Source of the DNA: Escherichia phage RB32
Sequence record: NC_008515.1
DNA length: 64,000 bases
Strand: one strand, 5' to 3'
The position numbers and the translations under genes are program-made. Positions 17,377 through 26,438 of the stretch are shown here, piece after piece; the stretch's first letter is position 1; the number at the start of each line of letters is the position of its first letter. The notes beneath the pieces were generated by a model. The model was not told where the DNA came from. It did not search any database and saw only the letters and a program-made list of their open reading frames with translations.

Positions 17377-17430
17377 TCCTCATGTTATGTCAGTAAGACT
17401 ACTATAACACAACACGAGGGACTTGTAAAC
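17377..17430 (-). repeat. 54-bp element, copy 1: early promoter (GTTTAC-N18-TATAGT) + leader + GAGGA SD
   Basis: Identical base-for-base to 32743..32796; sits between the Alt-paralogue stop and the 96-aa ORF start. Confidence 0.7.
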
Positions 17431-19487
17431 TACATTTTGAACTTTTTAGACATTCCGTTGATGTTAACCAAAGAAGCTAAGATTTGAGAAACTTCATTTT
17501 CCTCTTCTTTTGATTCTTCTACAAGGAATTGATTAAATCCAGTCATTGGACGAACTTCACCAGTTTCCATTAGATGGTCGCCATCATATACTGATTCCTC
17601 TAATTGTTCAGAAGGAGGAACGATTGTACCTTCGATTAGATACTTGTTATAAGCAGTTTCTTTCATAAAGTACGTACTTACTTTATTAATCTTCAGTAAA
17701 ATTCCACGCGGTAGAATAACTTCAGCTTCTGATGGAAATCCTGATAAATGACCTGGAACGATAACTTTGATTCGCTCAGCTCCTTTAATTACCATACCCA
17801 CGCTAGTTTCAGCATCTTCATTGGCATATGTAGAATGACTACCCGTATGCATTAAATCTTCTGCATCAACGGAACCTTCTCCTTCACCAGAAAATACTGC
17901 GCCGGAATCATCTAGAGCCATATAGTTTTTACCATGCTCACCGAAGATATTTGGTTTAAGCGATGTGGATACGAAGTTCTTGAAATAGAACATTTTATTT
18001 TCAATGTTATGACGCAAAGTTTTAAAGGTAACTTCTTGTCCACGATAAAGCGTAGTTCCTGGAGGAAGAACCGAACCTTTAGCGAATGCAGAATCCAACG
18101 TCTCGATGTGCTTAATGGCACGTTCCATATATTCTTCACGGGTAGAATCTGGTTTACCCAAAAGGAACGAGTTCATTTCAACATATGAATCTGCACAATA
18201 ATCTTCAATTACATCAGATTCAGCTTGAGTTAATCCTTTTGGAGTTACTTCGGTGCTTGCGTATTCATATGCCTGAGCGGCAGATTCATTAATCAATTTA
18301 TAAATGCCATTCATTACAAATTGAATAATAGCTGTCTTTTCATCTGGCGTAGCTTTAGAACCTTTAACCAAATCATTGATAATTTTCTTAATAACATCAA
18401 AGCTATTAGAAATATTAATATCAGCAAGATCGCTTAAAATTTTATCAGTTTTATAATCAAAGAATTCTTTATTCTTTAAATATTCTTGAGAACCTTGATA
18501 TGTTATATCGCTCTGCAACTTGATGGATGGATCACGTAAACGTGCATGGGCTAATGCAATATGATTTCGGAAGTTTTCTAGTTCATAATCGCTAGATTTA
18601 AAACGAGAAGCACTCCTCATACCACCGATAGCTCCTTTGCTGAAGTTTGAACCAATCTGAATAACGCCAGAGTTCATTGGTCCTTCTGCTTTATATACCG
18701 GAACTTTAGATTCAAACTCTTGATATTTCTTAGCAGCGAAGCTATCACCCTGAAGTGAAGCATCAACAGTAGAATATTGAGCTTGTGCTGCTAATCGACG
18801 ACTAATTTTAGTTTTCTGAATAACAGCTTGGTCCGTGCGCTTATCATTTTCTAAAGCAATAGAAGCAGCAACAGCGACAGCTTTAGGAACAGCATTACCT
18901 GTTTTAACGTCTACATAAACATCACCAACCTTTGATTCAACTTTTGTGAATAACTCAGTTGAAATAGGAGGTACACCTGGAATGTCTTCTAAATTGGCAT
19001 TTTTACGGTAAACCATAATATATGCATACTTTTTATCATAGTCCCAGATTTCCTTTAAAAGAACATATCGACCTGCTCCTTTAGTACGTACTAAACGGTC
19101 AGCAATAACTTGCATTTGACGAGCAGCGCCATTTGTTTTACTTTTTAGTACGCGGAATAGGCATGCGTCAATTTTATACTGCTTCATTGTTTGAAGAGCA
19201 GTATCAAAAACAGCATTAATGACACCAATTGGATTTCCACCCAAGTTTCTAAGCTTAACCAGCGATAATTTCTCGTTGACACCTATCATTACGATATGCA
19301 TCATTTTATCGCCTGGCTTAACGTTTTTATTCGTATCACCACCAGAGGTGTATGTACAAAATCTAAATCCAGGAAGCACGCTTTCTTCGCCGGCTTGAAT
19401 AGCAAAAATTTGTGGTATTTTATGCTTAGGATTTAAGTTAACAACCGGCGCCGAAGCGCCGTCAAATAATTCTGTAATAAGTTCCAT
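17430..19487 (-). CDS. Alt-family ADP-ribosyltransferase, second paralogue (685 aa)
   Basis: N-terminus MELITELFD... parallels Alt; C-terminal half carries LYRGQ, FVSTSL and SEAEV (R / STS / E-x-E ART-type motifs); start 3 nt after the alt stop with SD AAGGA. Confidence 0.85.
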   Translation of the reverse strand: MELITELFDGASAPVVNLNPKHKIPQIFAIQAGEESVLPGFRFCTYTSGGDTNKNVKPGDKMMHIVMIGVNEKLSLVKLRNLGGNPIGVINAVFDTALQTMKQYKIDACLFRVLKSKTNGAARQMQVIADRLVRTKGAGRYVLLKEIWDYDKKYAYIMVYRKNANLEDIPGVPPISTELFTKVESKVGDVYVDVKTGNAVPKAVAVAASIALENDKRTDQAVIQKTKISRRLAAQAQYSTVDASLQGDSFAAKKYQEFESKVPVYKAEGPMNSGVIQIGSNFSKGAIGGMRSASRFKSSDYELENFRNHIALAHARLRDPSIKLQSDITYQGSQEYLKNKEFFDYKTDKILSDLADINISNSFDVIKKIINDLVKGSKATPDEKTAIIQFVMNGIYKLINESAAQAYEYASTEVTPKGLTQAESDVIEDYCADSYVEMNSFLLGKPDSTREEYMERAIKHIETLDSAFAKGSVLPPGTTLYRGQEVTFKTLRHNIENKMFYFKNFVSTSLKPNIFGEHGKNYMALDDSGAVFSGEGEGSVDAEDLMHTGSHSTYANEDAETSVGMVIKGAERIKVIVPGHLSGFPSEAEVILPRGILLKINKVSTYFMKETAYNKYLIEGTIVPPSEQLEESVYDGDHLMETGEVRPMTGFNQFLVEESKEEENEVSQILASLVNINGMSKKFKM

Positions 19488-19490
19488 GAT

Positions 19491-21584
19491 TTATCCTTGA
19501 ACGAACTTGTAAGGCATGTTTGTAATATCTATGCAAGACGCAATAATTCCAAGAGATGATTCTACTTTCTGTTTAACATTTGATGAAACAAATGATGCAA
19601 AGTCAACTCTGTCTTCTACTTCAATATCACCTGTCATTGCAACTACTTCGCCGGTTTCCATTAGACAGTCTCCGTCATAAATTACCGATTCGGTGAGTTC
19701 TTCTGTGGTCATAACTTCAGCTTGAATGAGTTTTGTATTATTAGATGTTGTTCCGTCATTATTAGAAGCATCAGTTATTTTATTAACTTTGACCATCAAC
19801 CCGCGCGGTAGAATAACTTCAGCTTCTGTTGCTATTCCGAGACTTCCTGGATATACAACATTAACTTTATGAGCTCCATCAATTGCCCATCCTATTTGAA
19901 CTTTAACGTATTCAGGATTTTCTTTATACGCTCTTATTTCGTTTGGATTAATAGTTATTCCTTCTTCATTTTTATCAACTGTTAATTCGTTACGAGCTTC
20001 TGGTTCTAAAAGACCAATACCAGCATGTGTAATTCCAAAACGTCCAAAAATGATAGGAGTTAAAGAAGTAGATACAAAATTTCTGAAATAGAACACTTTA
20101 TTTTTAACTAGTGCTTCGTATATAGGAGCAGTCATACTTTGAGCACGATAAACTGTAATGCCTTCCGGTATGCGGTCACCATTTTCAAAAGCTGAATCTA
20201 AATTATTTATAGCAGATTCAATTTCTTTTTCACTCATTACATCATATCGTTCTGGATTGTAACGACCTAAAAGAAGATTATTAATGTCTGTATATCCTGA
20301 ACCACAATACTCTCTAATACCGCGCTTTTGTGATGGAGTATATTTAGAACCATCACGGGCAATAGTAATATCAATCATTGGACCAGCACCAATTCCAGAA
20401 AAGCTATAAATCATTCGTTTGAGGAATTTAGTTTTTGCTGCATTCCAGGCATTTTTAGTTATTTCTCCCCAGACTTCATCTGGTTGCCCTTTACGAGTTT
20501 TATTATGTTTATCAAGCCAATTATCTTTATATTCTTCAAAGAATTTATTAACAGCTGCTGCGTATTTCTCTAAACATTTTATTGAAGTAGTTGGCTCATT
20601 TTTTATCGCGTTAAAAATTACATCTTTAATTTTTTCGGAAACTTCATCAACCTCACTTTTTGAAAAGAATTTATAGTCATAGTGAAGTTCATTCGCAGTT
20701 CCTTCGGCAATAATTTTTGCTGCCTTAGTTTTAGAAGCTAATGAATTAATTCCAAGCTTCATTTCTTCTGCTTCGGGAATTAAAGGAGCGGTAGCAGGTT
20801 TATTGAAATTAGCTGCGGTAGATTCATACTTCTGGAATAATTCACTTTCAAACCTAGAAGATTCCAATGATTGACTTTGCGCAATTGCTCTACGGGAAAT
20901 TTTAACTTTAACGATTACAGCTTGGTCAGAACGTTTATCATTTTCTTGCGCAATAGATGCTGCAATTGCCTCATTTTTAGTTACTTGGGCTCCAGTATCT
21001 TTATTGATATAAACATCACCGACCTTCGATTCAACTTTAGTAAAGAGCTCGGTACTAATTTCCGGAACTCCTGGAATGTCTTCTAGTGATACATTTTTGC
21101 GATGTATAAGAATATATGCATACTTTTTATCATAATCCCAGAGTTCCTTAAGAAGGACGTATCTACCACCTGAACGACTACGGATAAGTCTATCAGCAAT
21201 AACTTGAATTTGTCGAGCTTGGCCAGCAGTTTTAGACTTAAGAATACGAAGCATACAAGCATCAATTTTATACTGACGCATCGTTTGCATTGCAACAGTA
21301 AAAACTGAATTGATATAATTAATTGGGCTTGGACCAAGACCTTTTAATTTAGCAATTGAACCTTTAGCAGTTAATGTAAAAGGAACAATATGCATCATTT
21401 TATCGCCCATTTTTAAATCGCGATTAGTATCACCTCCAGATGTATAGGTACATAAACGAAAGCCTGGTTGTTCAATTGCATCATCAACATGAACTGAAAA
21501 AATTTGCGGTATTTTCTTCTTTGGATTTAAGTTTGTAATCGGAAGAGTAGTATCTTCGTCAAATAATTCTGTAATGAGTTCCAT
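19491..21584 (-). CDS. alt: Alt ADP-ribosyltransferase (packaged internal head protein)
   Basis: 697 aa from the second Met (MELITELFDEDTTLPITNLNPKKK... as T4 Alt); VYRAQ, FVSTSL, TEAEV motifs. Confidence 0.92.
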   Translation of the reverse strand: MELITELFDEDTTLPITNLNPKKKIPQIFSVHVDDAIEQPGFRLCTYTSGGDTNRDLKMGDKMMHIVPFTLTAKGSIAKLKGLGPSPINYINSVFTVAMQTMRQYKIDACMLRILKSKTAGQARQIQVIADRLIRSRSGGRYVLLKELWDYDKKYAYILIHRKNVSLEDIPGVPEISTELFTKVESKVGDVYINKDTGAQVTKNEAIAASIAQENDKRSDQAVIVKVKISRRAIAQSQSLESSRFESELFQKYESTAANFNKPATAPLIPEAEEMKLGINSLASKTKAAKIIAEGTANELHYDYKFFSKSEVDEVSEKIKDVIFNAIKNEPTTSIKCLEKYAAAVNKFFEEYKDNWLDKHNKTRKGQPDEVWGEITKNAWNAAKTKFLKRMIYSFSGIGAGPMIDITIARDGSKYTPSQKRGIREYCGSGYTDINNLLLGRYNPERYDVMSEKEIESAINNLDSAFENGDRIPEGITVYRAQSMTAPIYEALVKNKVFYFRNFVSTSLTPIIFGRFGITHAGIGLLEPEARNELTVDKNEEGITINPNEIRAYKENPEYVKVQIGWAIDGAHKVNVVYPGSLGIATEAEVILPRGLMVKVNKITDASNNDGTTSNNTKLIQAEVMTTEELTESVIYDGDCLMETGEVVAMTGDIEVEDRVDFASFVSSNVKQKVESSLGIIASCIDITNMPYKFVQG

Positions 21585-21607
21585 CATATCCTCTCTAGTG
21601 TTTATTC

Positions 21608-21637: not shown

Positions 21638-21825
21638 TAATAATCTATTGGTAAGAGAGTACGATATATTTCAAACTTTGGACCTTTTTCATAGGCATCA
21701 AATGTTTCTGTGAATTTATTATAAGCATATGCATCTATAAATTCAATCATGATTTGTGATACAGAAGTAGAAACATCTCCACCTTCTTTTTGAGCCACGA
21801 CAATTGTTTCTAAGTAAGCTTTCAT
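21637..21825 (-). CDS. Hypothetical protein, 62 aa
   Basis: ORF whose ATG overlaps the gene 30 stop (ATGA). Confidence 0.5.
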   Translation of the reverse strand: MKAYLETIVVAQKEGGDVSTSVSQIMIEFIDAYAYNKFTETFDAYEKGPKFEIYRTLLPIDY

Positions 21826-23282
21826 AGACCAGTTACCTCATGAAAATCACCAAATACATCTTCGAATGTATTAGCTTTAGTTTTATCTTCACGTAAACGA
21901 ATCGCAATCGGAAGAAATAATTTAACGTAATCAGTGCGGCCATCAGATTTTAACCAACCGTTGCATTCGCACTCTAGAATTTTTCCAATATAATAATTTT
22001 GGTTTTCCATGATGCGAGTACGGTCAAGTTCATGTGATTTTACACCGGCTTTATCTTTTAAGCCTGAACCAGCATTTACTTTAATTTTTCCACACTCTGA
22101 TTCAAGAATAAATCCACCTGCTTTAGTAGGGTCTTTACGGTGAGGATAAATTCCTACAATTTTTAAATCAACATCAATTACTTCTTTAAATTTATAGAGA
22201 TTTTTTGAACGAGCATTTTCCCACAATCCATCGGTATTTTTGAGAATAATACCTTCAAGACCTTGGTCAATATACTTTTTGTAAATAACCTTAGCTTCAT
22301 CTAGGTTATTTACTACCTGGTTTTCAATTAAAATTACTTTATCATAGCCTGATGTCATTTGTTCTAGTTTAGAAAAACGTACATCATATTTTAAACGAAA
22401 TGCTGGAAGACCGTATACTTCTACCAACGGTACATAATCCCAGACCTGAAACTTCATGCATTGAGCTTCTTTTTCTGAAATAGTTCCTTTTAAAGATTTA
22501 TTAGCGATTCCATTAGAAGCAGTACGTGATTCAGCTACTTCTGTGAAGTCTTTAGCTTTGCTAATTTCAGGAGTGTCAAAAAGAAAATCTAGGCCTTCTG
22601 ATTCCTTTTTAACTTGCTCATGGTATACCAATTCGCCATCAATTAACACACCTTCTGGATGAATCTGGCGGGCTTCAGCAGTCATTTTGATTAACTCTTC
22701 CTTAAGAAGATCTAATCCTAGGTATTCATTACCAGCTCGTGATAAAAGACGAACATCATCTAATTCATCACCTCTGACTTCAGCAAAGCACCGAGCTCCA
22801 TCAGCTTTTAATTGGGCAAAGGCTGGAAATTTGATATTCTTATTAATGCCTTTTTCATCATAAGAACTTGCCAGCATTTGAGGTTGTTCAGGAATTAAAC
22901 CTGGCCAAACTTTGTTTGCAATAGATACTGATGCACCGCATTCAAGGTCTCGCATCATCACCCGACGCAAAACTTCAACATCATCTTTTTTACCGTCAGT
23001 AATATATCCAGTTAATTCCTCAATTGCCGCATTTCCAGTCAATTTCCGAGTAGCTAACGTGAATTCAATGAAGTCAAGCATATCGGTAAGAGTCAACATT
23101 CCAAAACTCTGGGTAGCAATACCAGGTTTAGGCCATTTCTTGATATAATACTGTAACCCACGAGAATAAGTCAGACGATATACTCGTTTAAGCAATTCAT
23201 TATCTTTATTCTTTTCAAGAATTGCTTGCTTCTGCTTAGTTGAACCAATAGATGCTATTTCGTTCAGAATTTTAAGAATCAT
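21822..23282 (-). CDS. 30: ATP-dependent DNA ligase gp30
   Basis: 486 aa, MILKILNEIASIGSTKQKQAILEKNKDNELLKRVY..., adenylation motif KADGAR; matches T4 DNA ligase. Confidence 0.95.
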   Translation of the reverse strand: MILKILNEIASIGSTKQKQAILEKNKDNELLKRVYRLTYSRGLQYYIKKWPKPGIATQSFGMLTLTDMLDFIEFTLATRKLTGNAAIEELTGYITDGKKDDVEVLRRVMMRDLECGASVSIANKVWPGLIPEQPQMLASSYDEKGINKNIKFPAFAQLKADGARCFAEVRGDELDDVRLLSRAGNEYLGLDLLKEELIKMTAEARQIHPEGVLIDGELVYHEQVKKESEGLDFLFDTPEISKAKDFTEVAESRTASNGIANKSLKGTISEKEAQCMKFQVWDYVPLVEVYGLPAFRLKYDVRFSKLEQMTSGYDKVILIENQVVNNLDEAKVIYKKYIDQGLEGIILKNTDGLWENARSKNLYKFKEVIDVDLKIVGIYPHRKDPTKAGGFILESECGKIKVNAGSGLKDKAGVKSHELDRTRIMENQNYYIGKILECECNGWLKSDGRTDYVKLFLPIAIRLREDKTKANTFEDVFGDFHEVTGL

Positions 23283-23548
23283 TGTTCATCCTTTAGAGTT
23301 TGGTTTACAGCTCTATTATAAATCAATTCATCATTAAGCTCAGTCAAAGACCTGTGGTACGTGGTTCTAACTTTATTTCCTTGCATCCAGTGCTTGACGT
23401 AAATGAAACCTTGCTCTACACATTTTTTAAAAATTCGTTCGTCTTTTTGAGCTCGGAATTCTGGATTGCATCTAAAAAATTGATTTACGTGACCGTAATC
23501 ACGTGTAGTATTACCTTCATTTTCATAAATAGTGTGAACGACAAACAT
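23279..23548 (-). CDS. Hypothetical protein, 89 aa (30.1 position)
   Basis: ORF coupled (ATGA overlap) to gene 30 and to the next ORF. Confidence 0.6.
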   Translation of the reverse strand: MFVVHTIYENEGNTTRDYGHVNQFFRCNPEFRAQKDERIFKKCVEQGFIYVKHWMQGNKVRTTYHRSLTELNDELIYNRAVNQTLKDEQ

Positions 23549-24387
23549 TAGAATGCTCCTTGGAAAATATTATCACCACTAGTAGGTCTATTATACAAAT
23601 ACTCTATGCCACCAGGTTTAATATAGTTCCATGTCTGAAACGGATGTGTCTGATATGGATGATATAGATGATTATAAGGATTAAATCCAGGAGTTCTCCA
23701 GGTAGTGTTCCAAGGAAAAGAATCGTTTTTAATCATCTTTTCAATTACATCTTTTATAGCTTTTTCACTATCAAAACTTTCTTTATTTTCCTTCGATGGA
23801 AAAAGCTTATTCTCGACATCATTCCATGTATAAACTCGCTGAGCAGTTTTTGGAATACTGTCACGCTCCCCTCGAGCCATCCAATAAACAGGAACATTTA
23901 ATATTTCACTCGCATGATCGCAGTGATGAGCGAGATCGTCAATATAACAAATTACGTTATATTTCTCTTTTGCCTTTTTGAACAACTCTTCTTTTGAAGA
24001 ATCATGACCACACATCATTACTTCTGAGAAGGCACCAGGAAAAAGAGCATTCAAATTAAATTGGCGATTCAACAGAGCGTCAATAGAATCACCTAATGCT
24101 GTAACAGCTACAAAATTATAATCTTCTTTTAATTTGTTAATTACACACAGGGCATCTTTATACGGAGACAAGTAACGAATAAAATCTGAACGATTGTATT
24201 TTTCAATTAACTTGACGCCAAGTTCTTCGTCACAATTAAAGAGTTTACCTGGAGAAATAAATTTCTCATCTTGGATCATTTTTAAAATATGTTCTAACGG
24301 AAGATTATATTTCTGGGCAAAATAAGGAAGGCCTGATTGCCAGCTTAAACATACTCCATCAATATCAGTCAAAATAGTTGGCTTCAT
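23548..24387 (-). CDS. HAD-superfamily hydrolase-like protein, 279 aa (30.2 position)
   Basis: N-terminal motif ILTDIDGV (hhhDxDGV, HAD motif I) and later YIDD acidic motif. Confidence 0.6.
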   Translation of the reverse strand: MKPTILTDIDGVCLSWQSGLPYFAQKYNLPLEHILKMIQDEKFISPGKLFNCDEELGVKLIEKYNRSDFIRYLSPYKDALCVINKLKEDYNFVAVTALGDSIDALLNRQFNLNALFPGAFSEVMMCGHDSSKEELFKKAKEKYNVICYIDDLAHHCDHASEILNVPVYWMARGERDSIPKTAQRVYTWNDVENKLFPSKENKESFDSEKAIKDVIEKMIKNDSFPWNTTWRTPGFNPYNHLYHPYQTHPFQTWNYIKPGGIEYLYNRPTSGDNIFQGAF

Positions 24388-24848
24388 AGAGAGTCTCTTA
24401 ATAGATTTAACACATCAATAAATTCAGCTTCGGTTAGTATTGTATCATCTTTTGTTAGACCACTAGCCATGCTGTGCTTCAAAACTTTTCCTTTCGAGGC
24501 TTGTAATGCATCACGAAAGCCCCTGTTTTGGATCGCTGCTTCAAAATATGCATTTGTGTATAATTCTTTCCACGCTGGAGAGTATCTTGAAAATGGAACT
24601 CCAAGCCAGAACAACGTGCCACGGTCCTGAGCTCTAGCATAAGCTCGTCCAGCTTGTTGGGCGGCAAGCCCGGATAAACCAAATATACGACGTTGTTGTT
24701 CAACATTTTTCACTTTGCATCCTTGGAGGAATCCTTCAAGACCTCCGAATTGAATACCATCCATGACGAAAGGCCATTGGGCGAAATTGCTTAATGCACA
24801 TGATGGCCATCTAAAATTGCTTCTAATCTCTAACTCAGACATTTTCAA
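24384..24848 (-). CDS. YbiA/NADAR-like protein, 154 aa (30.3 position)
   Basis: Motifs LSNFAQWPFVMDGIQF...EGFLQGCKV and ALQASKGKVLKHS resemble the YbiA/DUF1768 (NADAR) signature FSNFAxWPIxVDG...EHYFQAxKF...LVEHT. Confidence 0.55.
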   Translation of the reverse strand: MKMSELEIRSNFRWPSCALSNFAQWPFVMDGIQFGGLEGFLQGCKVKNVEQQRRIFGLSGLAAQQAGRAYARAQDRGTLFWLGVPFSRYSPAWKELYTNAYFEAAIQNRGFRDALQASKGKVLKHSMASGLTKDDTILTEAEFIDVLNLLRDSL

Positions 24849-25041
24849 TACTTATAATTTCAACATCAGCCCAATGACCATAGCAAGGAAGACGAAATTC
24901 AACTGGCCAGTTAGGGTCCTTTTCTAATATAATAGACTTAACTTGTGGTTCTTCATGTTCATCGGTATATGGACCTTTATATGTTACTTTATATGTGACC
25001 TTAATGTACTGAATTCCAAAAATCTTATTAATTATATTCAT
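24835..25041 (-). CDS. Hypothetical protein, 68 aa
   Basis: ORF in the 30.x small-gene run. Confidence 0.45.
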   Translation of the reverse strand: MNIINKIFGIQYIKVTYKVTYKGPYTDEHEEPQVKSIILEKDPNWPVEFRLPCYGHWADVEIISIENV

Positions 25042-25996: not shown

Positions 25997-26329
25997 TTAT
26001 TTTACTATTTTCCAATGCTGCATGTCAAGTTTACCAACTTTTTTCATCTTCTCAATCAAACGTTCGGCACGTTGGCGAGCTGTAACATAATGCCATTCGC
26101 CTAATTCATTTTGTTCAATTTTTCCAACGATTACTGTATTCAATTCATAAATCCAACCAGTAAAGAAATTATGAACTTGAATTGTAAAGGTGAAATCTGT
26201 TCCCATACCTTCTGTTGTTTCTACTTCAATAATATCACCTTCAACTGCCATTAAGAACCACATAGTTTCATCATATTTACCATTGAAGCATTTAGTTTTA
26301 ACTGTAGCGTTCAGATTAATCGTTTTCAT
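25997..26329 (-). CDS. Hypothetical protein, 110 aa
   Basis: ORF with an early promoter upstream. Confidence 0.55.
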   Translation of the reverse strand: MKTINLNATVKTKCFNGKYDETMWFLMAVEGDIIEVETTEGMGTDFTFTIQVHNFFTGWIYELNTVIVGKIEQNELGEWHYVTARQRAERLIEKMKKVGKLDMQHWKIVK

Positions 26330-26386: not shown

Positions 26387-26414
26387 AACTTTATGTAATC
26401 TTTGGAAAATAAAA

Positions 26415-26434
26415 AGGACTCCCGAAGGAGTCCT
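26415..26434 (-). terminator. Rho-independent terminator AGGACUCC-UUCG-GGAGUCCU + U-run
   Basis: 8-bp stem with UUCG loop followed by UUUUUAUUUU on the minus transcript, just after the basic small ORF. Confidence 0.65.
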
Positions 26435-26438
26435 CAAC

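Follow-up and report, generated by a model that had tools for sequence, protein, structure and literature searches.

The window, by which we mean the complete stretch of 64,000 nucleotides that was analyzed, derives from Escherichia phage RB32 (NC_008515.1). The region between positions 23200 and 25100 is 100% identical at the DNA level to phage RB33, and hundreds of T4-like phages match it at about 97% identity. Comparison with the T4 annotation showed that the gene order around gene 30.3 is the same as in T4. All genes described here are encoded on the minus strand and are tightly packed. Gene 30.4 (24835..25041) lies directly upstream of gene 30.3 (24384..24842; 459 nt, 152 aa), which corresponds to adfN and codes for a phage-type NADAR protein, a predicted DNA ADP-ribosylglycohydrolase, and the stop of 30.4 overlaps the ATG of 30.3 by 8 nt. 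As read from the sequence the stop codon of 30.3 and the start codon of 30.2 overlap as ATGA (24384..24387), and the stop of 30.2 and the start of 30.1 as TAATG. Gene 30.2 (23548..24387) codes for a protein of 279 aa, a predicted HAD-superfamily phosphatase with a helical cap. Gene 30.1 (23279..23548) codes for a DUF3045 protein (PF11243, E=2.9e-64), in agreement with the T4 annotation, and is followed by gene 30 for the ATP-dependent DNA ligase (21822..23282, PF01068 match), by alt.1, which in the gene order stands between gene 30 and alt, by alt (19491..21587, PF03496 match) and by a second alt-like gene (17430..19487).

An earlier note, made from the letters of the sequence, had singled out the open reading frames of 30.3 and 30.2 as a coupled pair. 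Both are present at its coordinates on the minus strand, and identity with the T4 proteins is 98% for gp30.3 and 97% for gp30.2; the peptide blocks quoted in their support (LSNFAQWPFVMDGIQF, EGFLQGCKV, ALQASKGKVLKHS and ILTDIDGV) are all found in the two frames. The pair had been placed immediately downstream of the ligase gene. With every one of these genes encoded on the minus strand, it is in fact transcriptionally upstream of the ligase, and gene 30.1 is located in between. The frame of 30.3 can be read from a TTG at 24848 (24384..24848), giving 154 aa, while the T4 annotation starts two codons further in at the ATG at 24842. With the numbering of the 152-aa protein the published catalytic residues fall in the correct places. 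A further frame of 75 codons (24479-24706, minus strand) lies within adfN and corresponds to gene 30.3' of the T4 annotation; relatives with a protein identity of 86% or more keep it open, but most distant homologues do not.

A scan for promoters and terminators gave overall counts no better than those in shuffled sequence and we therefore do not claim operon boundaries. The best minus-strand sigma-70-like match (11/12) lies upstream of gene 30.7, with a terminator-like hairpin just before it (25999-26028 and 26414-26435, both on the minus strand). Between this match and the end of the ligase gene the scan found no terminator-like site on the minus strand, which would fit a single transcript from 30.7 to 30.

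Direct sequence searches of Pfam, NCBIfam and the PDB gave no significant NADAR match for gp30.3 and no significant HAD match for gp30.2, so that family profiles and structure models were needed for both proteins. The window gp30.3 matches Pfam PF08010 (Phage_30_3) with 233 bits at a cut-off of 36 (E=1e-69); the direct match to the NADAR profile PF08719, proposed earlier as a check, is absent at E<=1. Divergent members of the gp30.3 family (31-46% identity) score 14-22 bits against PF08719 (E=1.5e-4 to 5e-2), below the curated cut-off of 35.1 bits. The relationship to PF08719 is one at the superfamily level. A profile built from nine family members found E. coli YbiA as its top PDB match (E=0.058), aligned on the block that had been quoted as a NADAR signature. 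The structure model of the window gp30.3 has the alpha+beta fold of NADAR proteins and an intact C-terminal helix (140-153), and it matches NADAR structures only, with a clean gap to other folds. The assignment of the 154-aa frame to the NADAR family was thus right, and structure comparison or family profiles are required to see it. Residues E36, K43 and H123 in T4 numbering (E38, K45 and H125 in the 154-aa numbering) are invariant in an alignment of nine gp30.3 sequences; roles for the catalytic glutamate and lysine, which contact ADP-ribose, and for the histidine of the last strand have been described (PMC11825919, PMC11543638, PMC11125620).

The T4 orthologue has been studied in detail. [quoted passage not shown] Upon deletion of adfN T4 and T2 fail to plaque on DarTG1 hosts, a phenotype specific to DarTG1, and AdfN alone complements the T4 deletion; DarTG2 is not countered (PMC11825919). 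In a T4 transposon screen (HIDEN-SEQ) adfN insertions were completely lost on a DarTG1 host (bioRxiv 10.1101/2025.11.20.689424). Purified AdfN by itself removes ADP-ribose from DarT1-modified DNA in vitro, and its activity is lowered by E36A, by K43A and by truncation (PMC11825919). T4 gp30.3 hydrolyses guanine-ADP-ribose but not thymidine- or cytidine-ADP-ribose in vitro, and the phage NADARs form the family with a histidine in the last strand (PMC11125620, PMC12945103). The T4 gp30.3 construct is given as residues 1-208 in the methods of PMC11125620, as compared with the 152 residues encoded by the T4 and RB33 genes; the difference may be an error or may reflect the inclusion of tag residues. 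RB69 carries an allele that is shortened by 15 residues, and it is rescued by adfN supplied in trans (PMC11825919); the RB69 gene is annotated with 414 nt against 459 nt in the window and in T4. That NADAR genes of T4-like phages are linked to early ART genes had been noted before (PMC9503650).

The window protein is 98% identical to T4 gp30.3 over all 152 residues, with three conservative substitutions (A67S, R107K and M124I), of which that at M124 adjoins H123; the last 29 residues are identical. It shares with T4 AdfN the genomic position, E36, K43 and H123 and the full-length C-terminal helix. With this identity and all functional residues intact we would expect the activity and the phenotype of the T4 protein also for the window AdfN. 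The idea of the earlier note, that a phage NADAR counters DarT-type ADP-ribosylation of DNA, is correct, and it was already published for T4, as the characterization of T4 gp30.3 as AdfN makes clear: the orthologue hydrolyses guanine-ADP-ribose on DNA and is required on DarTG1 hosts (PMC11825919, PMC11125620). Compared with the NADAR domains of DarG1 (e.g., Geobacter lovleyi 8bat), YbiA (2b3w) and the NADAR protein of P. nicotianae (8bau) gp30.3 is only 13-20% identical and carries a histidine in place of the acidic residue of the last strand. In contrast to DarG1 it has no extra N-terminal elements beside the core domain (PMC12945103) and no partner DarT toxin, and AdfN fails to function as an antitoxin when cells are not infected (PMC11825919). 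There is no adjacent gene for a DarT toxin in the window, 30.4, 30.2, 30.1 and the ligase gene being without a DarT match, and the NADAR gene is an orphan as described for AdfN.

The earlier note had further proposed that the HAD and NADAR genes together with Alt form an ADP-ribose processing module. For the pair itself this could mean a two-step pathway in which the NADAR protein releases ADP-ribose and the HAD protein degrades it or a derivative. Alternatively gp30.2, translationally coupled to adfN, could be a T-even factor required for full activity of AdfN(T4) in vivo. The latter has a basis in the published work: AdfN(T4) gives uninfected E. coli no protection against DarT1, and it does not protect T5 and Bas25 against DarTG1 either. 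It works fully only in T-even infection; in RB69, where it does work, 30.2 is intact. The authors suggested that a further protein of T-even phages may be required (PMC11825919). If gp30.2 were this factor, the failure of AdfN in uninfected E. coli, T5 and Bas25 and yet its function in RB69 would be explained.

We examined both possibilities by gene neighbourhood. A word-indexed search found 22 close relatives of gp30.3, and tblastn gave 1509 phage records for gp30.3 and 1451 for gp30.2. Both genes are near-universal in T4-like phages and their co-occurrence at the genome level is therefore uninformative. We fetched 30 viral loci by way of gp30.3 and 77 by way of gp30.2 and located the neighbouring genes by tblastn. 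The ATGA overlap speaks for a functional connection, and so does the finding that 30.2 and 30.3 abut in all close relatives (gp30.3 identity of 77% or more) for which the locus reaches beyond the stop of 30.3, and also in Acinetobacter-type phages with proteins only about 40% identical. Of 75 loci of 30.2, 36 have a NADAR gene no more than 2.5 kb upstream and only 20 have it directly abutting. Among 15 loci whose gp30.3 homologue is divergent (<50% identity), ten lack a 30.2 gene within 6 kb; in two of these ten the NADAR gene lies directly upstream of the ligase gene. In some genomes the two genes are about 58 kb apart (e.g., loci L020 and L071 on one 167-kb contig). In 69 of 74 loci, on the other hand, 30.2 is followed within 2.5 kb by a ligase gene of the same orientation; this holds also where identity between the ligases is only 36-40%, and the two genes often abut or overlap. 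Gene 30.2 thus tracks the ligase gene and not adfN, and a processing module of HAD, NADAR and Alt is unsupported. Against a module there is also the activity of AdfN alone in vitro and in complementation of the T4 deletion mentioned above, and the text on DarTG1 of the T4 transposon screen names only adfN, with no mention of 30.2 (bioRxiv 10.1101/2025.11.20.689424). We consider a two-step module or a role of gp30.2 as the T-even factor very unlikely, the latter because of the synteny, the in vitro activity of AdfN by itself and the silence of the transposon screen on 30.2. The packing in the order 30.4, 30.3, 30.2, 30.1 and 30 is best read as inherited T4 gene order and not as a dedicated ADP-ribose operon. 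At loci L025 and L026 (6001-7948) a gp30.3-type NADAR gene stands directly upstream of the ligase gene with neither 30.2 nor 30.1 in between.

The product of Alt is arginine-ADP-ribose, and the NADAR protein might work with the neighbouring Alt, for instance by reversing or tuning the ADP-ribosylation of host proteins by the phage itself. The two ADP-ribosyltransferase genes reported close to the pair are indeed there, about 2-6 kb away and both with PF03496 matches. We found no evidence for a link of Alt to either gene. Of the 15 divergent gp30.3 loci 13 have no Alt gene in their flanks, and Alt accompanies the ligase in many loci that lack a NADAR gene. All NADAR activity tested is on nucleic-acid bases and not on the arginine-ADP-ribose made by Alt; where it has been demonstrated for phage enzymes, the target is always guanine in DNA or RNA and not arginine-linked ADP-ribose of proteins (PMC11125620, PMC12945103). 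Loss of adfN, moreover, has a phenotype specific to DarTG1 (PMC11825919). A partnership with Alt appears to us the most remote of the explanations considered. The second Alt-like ADP-ribosyltransferase (17430-19487, minus strand) is full-length with 685 aa and is only 41% identical to both the adjacent Alt and T4 Alt. The corresponding site in T4 carries no more than the short alt.-1 and alt.-2, which are left over from an old duplication of alt.

The window gp30.2 has no Pfam or NCBIfam assignment. Nevertheless the assignment of the 279-aa frame to the HAD superfamily was sound: all four motifs (DxDx[TV], T/S, K and DD) are present and the model shows the Rossmann-like HAD core with a helical insertion, the cap, after motif I, its score being above 90 over residues 1-190 with low confidence from about residue 229. 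Among 35 homologues D8, D10, G11 and K132 are invariant and T96, D150 and D151 are conserved in at least 90%. The best PDB match of the family profile is the deoxyribonucleotidase 2jao (E=0.026). An exhaustive profile search yielded 1440 cluster representatives; 14 of 24 remote relatives match Pfam NT5C (PF06941) at E<=1e-3, and these NT5C-type relatives align to the gp30.2 family with an hhalign probability of 100%, whereas gp30.2 itself has no match to PF06941 at E<=1. Viral structures matching gp30.2 carry names such as 5' nucleotidase and, lower down, polynucleotide kinase/phosphatase. By its motifs and modelled fold gp30.2 is a predicted HAD phosphatase related to the 5'(3')-deoxyribonucleotidase (NT5C) family. 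A cap inserted after motif I favours small substrates in HAD enzymes, and judged from fold, catalytic motifs and cap domain gp30.2 most likely dephosphorylates a small nucleotide-like substrate. A full-text literature search on the name of the protein found no functional study of gp30.2, and the gene neighbours of two remote relatives (L105 and L107) were uninformative.

The close linkage to gene 30 raises the possibility that gp30.2 acts together with the ligase, for instance as a 3'-phosphatase that prepares DNA ends for sealing or by clearing away a nucleotide formed as a by-product when the ligase acts. Besides the synteny the weak matches of gp30.2 to polynucleotide kinase/phosphatase families (phrog_415, E=0.003) would agree with such a role, for which we found no study of the 30.2-ligase pairing in the literature. 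The helical cap and NT5C nucleotidases as the nearest characterized family argue against an action on DNA ends. Moreover the more distant relatives of gp30.2 (26-28% identity) have no ligase gene nearby, and the linkage may therefore be inherited gene order only. On balance we regard a joint action with the ligase as improbable, although less so than the alternatives involving AdfN or Alt.

We therefore favour as very probable the reading that gene 30.3 of the window is a copy of adfN, that 30.2 codes for a separate HAD phosphatase and that their arrangement is the inherited T4 order. According to this explanation the host toxin DarT1 would ADP-ribosylate guanines in the replicating phage DNA. 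AdfN, an orphan NADAR consisting of the core domain only, would cleave the N-glycosidic bond of guanine-ADP-ribose, so that ADP-ribose would be released, the base restored and phage replication could proceed. Full activity would need the C-terminal helix besides the catalytic residues E36, K43 and the phage-type H123. The adfN gene may serve as an example of how a phage has captured an enzyme resembling an antitoxin and uses it to reverse a host defence based on DNA modification, and the window adds only another allele to a story already published for T4. The product of 30.2 would be a separate Mg-dependent HAD phosphatase of the 5'(3')-deoxyribonucleotidase-like branch and as such a widespread phosphatase of T4-like phages.

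From the 5'(3')-deoxyribonucleotidases (cdN/mdN; 2jao, 6g2n and 3bwv) gp30.2 differs by an extra variable C-terminal tail of about 80 residues. Residues 1 to about 200 are NT5C-like and the variable tail from about 229 to 279 is probably disordered. This last part (23548-23700) is rich in aromatic residues and proline and is missing or different in many homologues, several of which are only about 200 aa long. At least ten homologues share the near-terminal motif G-I-E-Y-L-x-x-(Q/R)-P-T, which could be a docking peptide.
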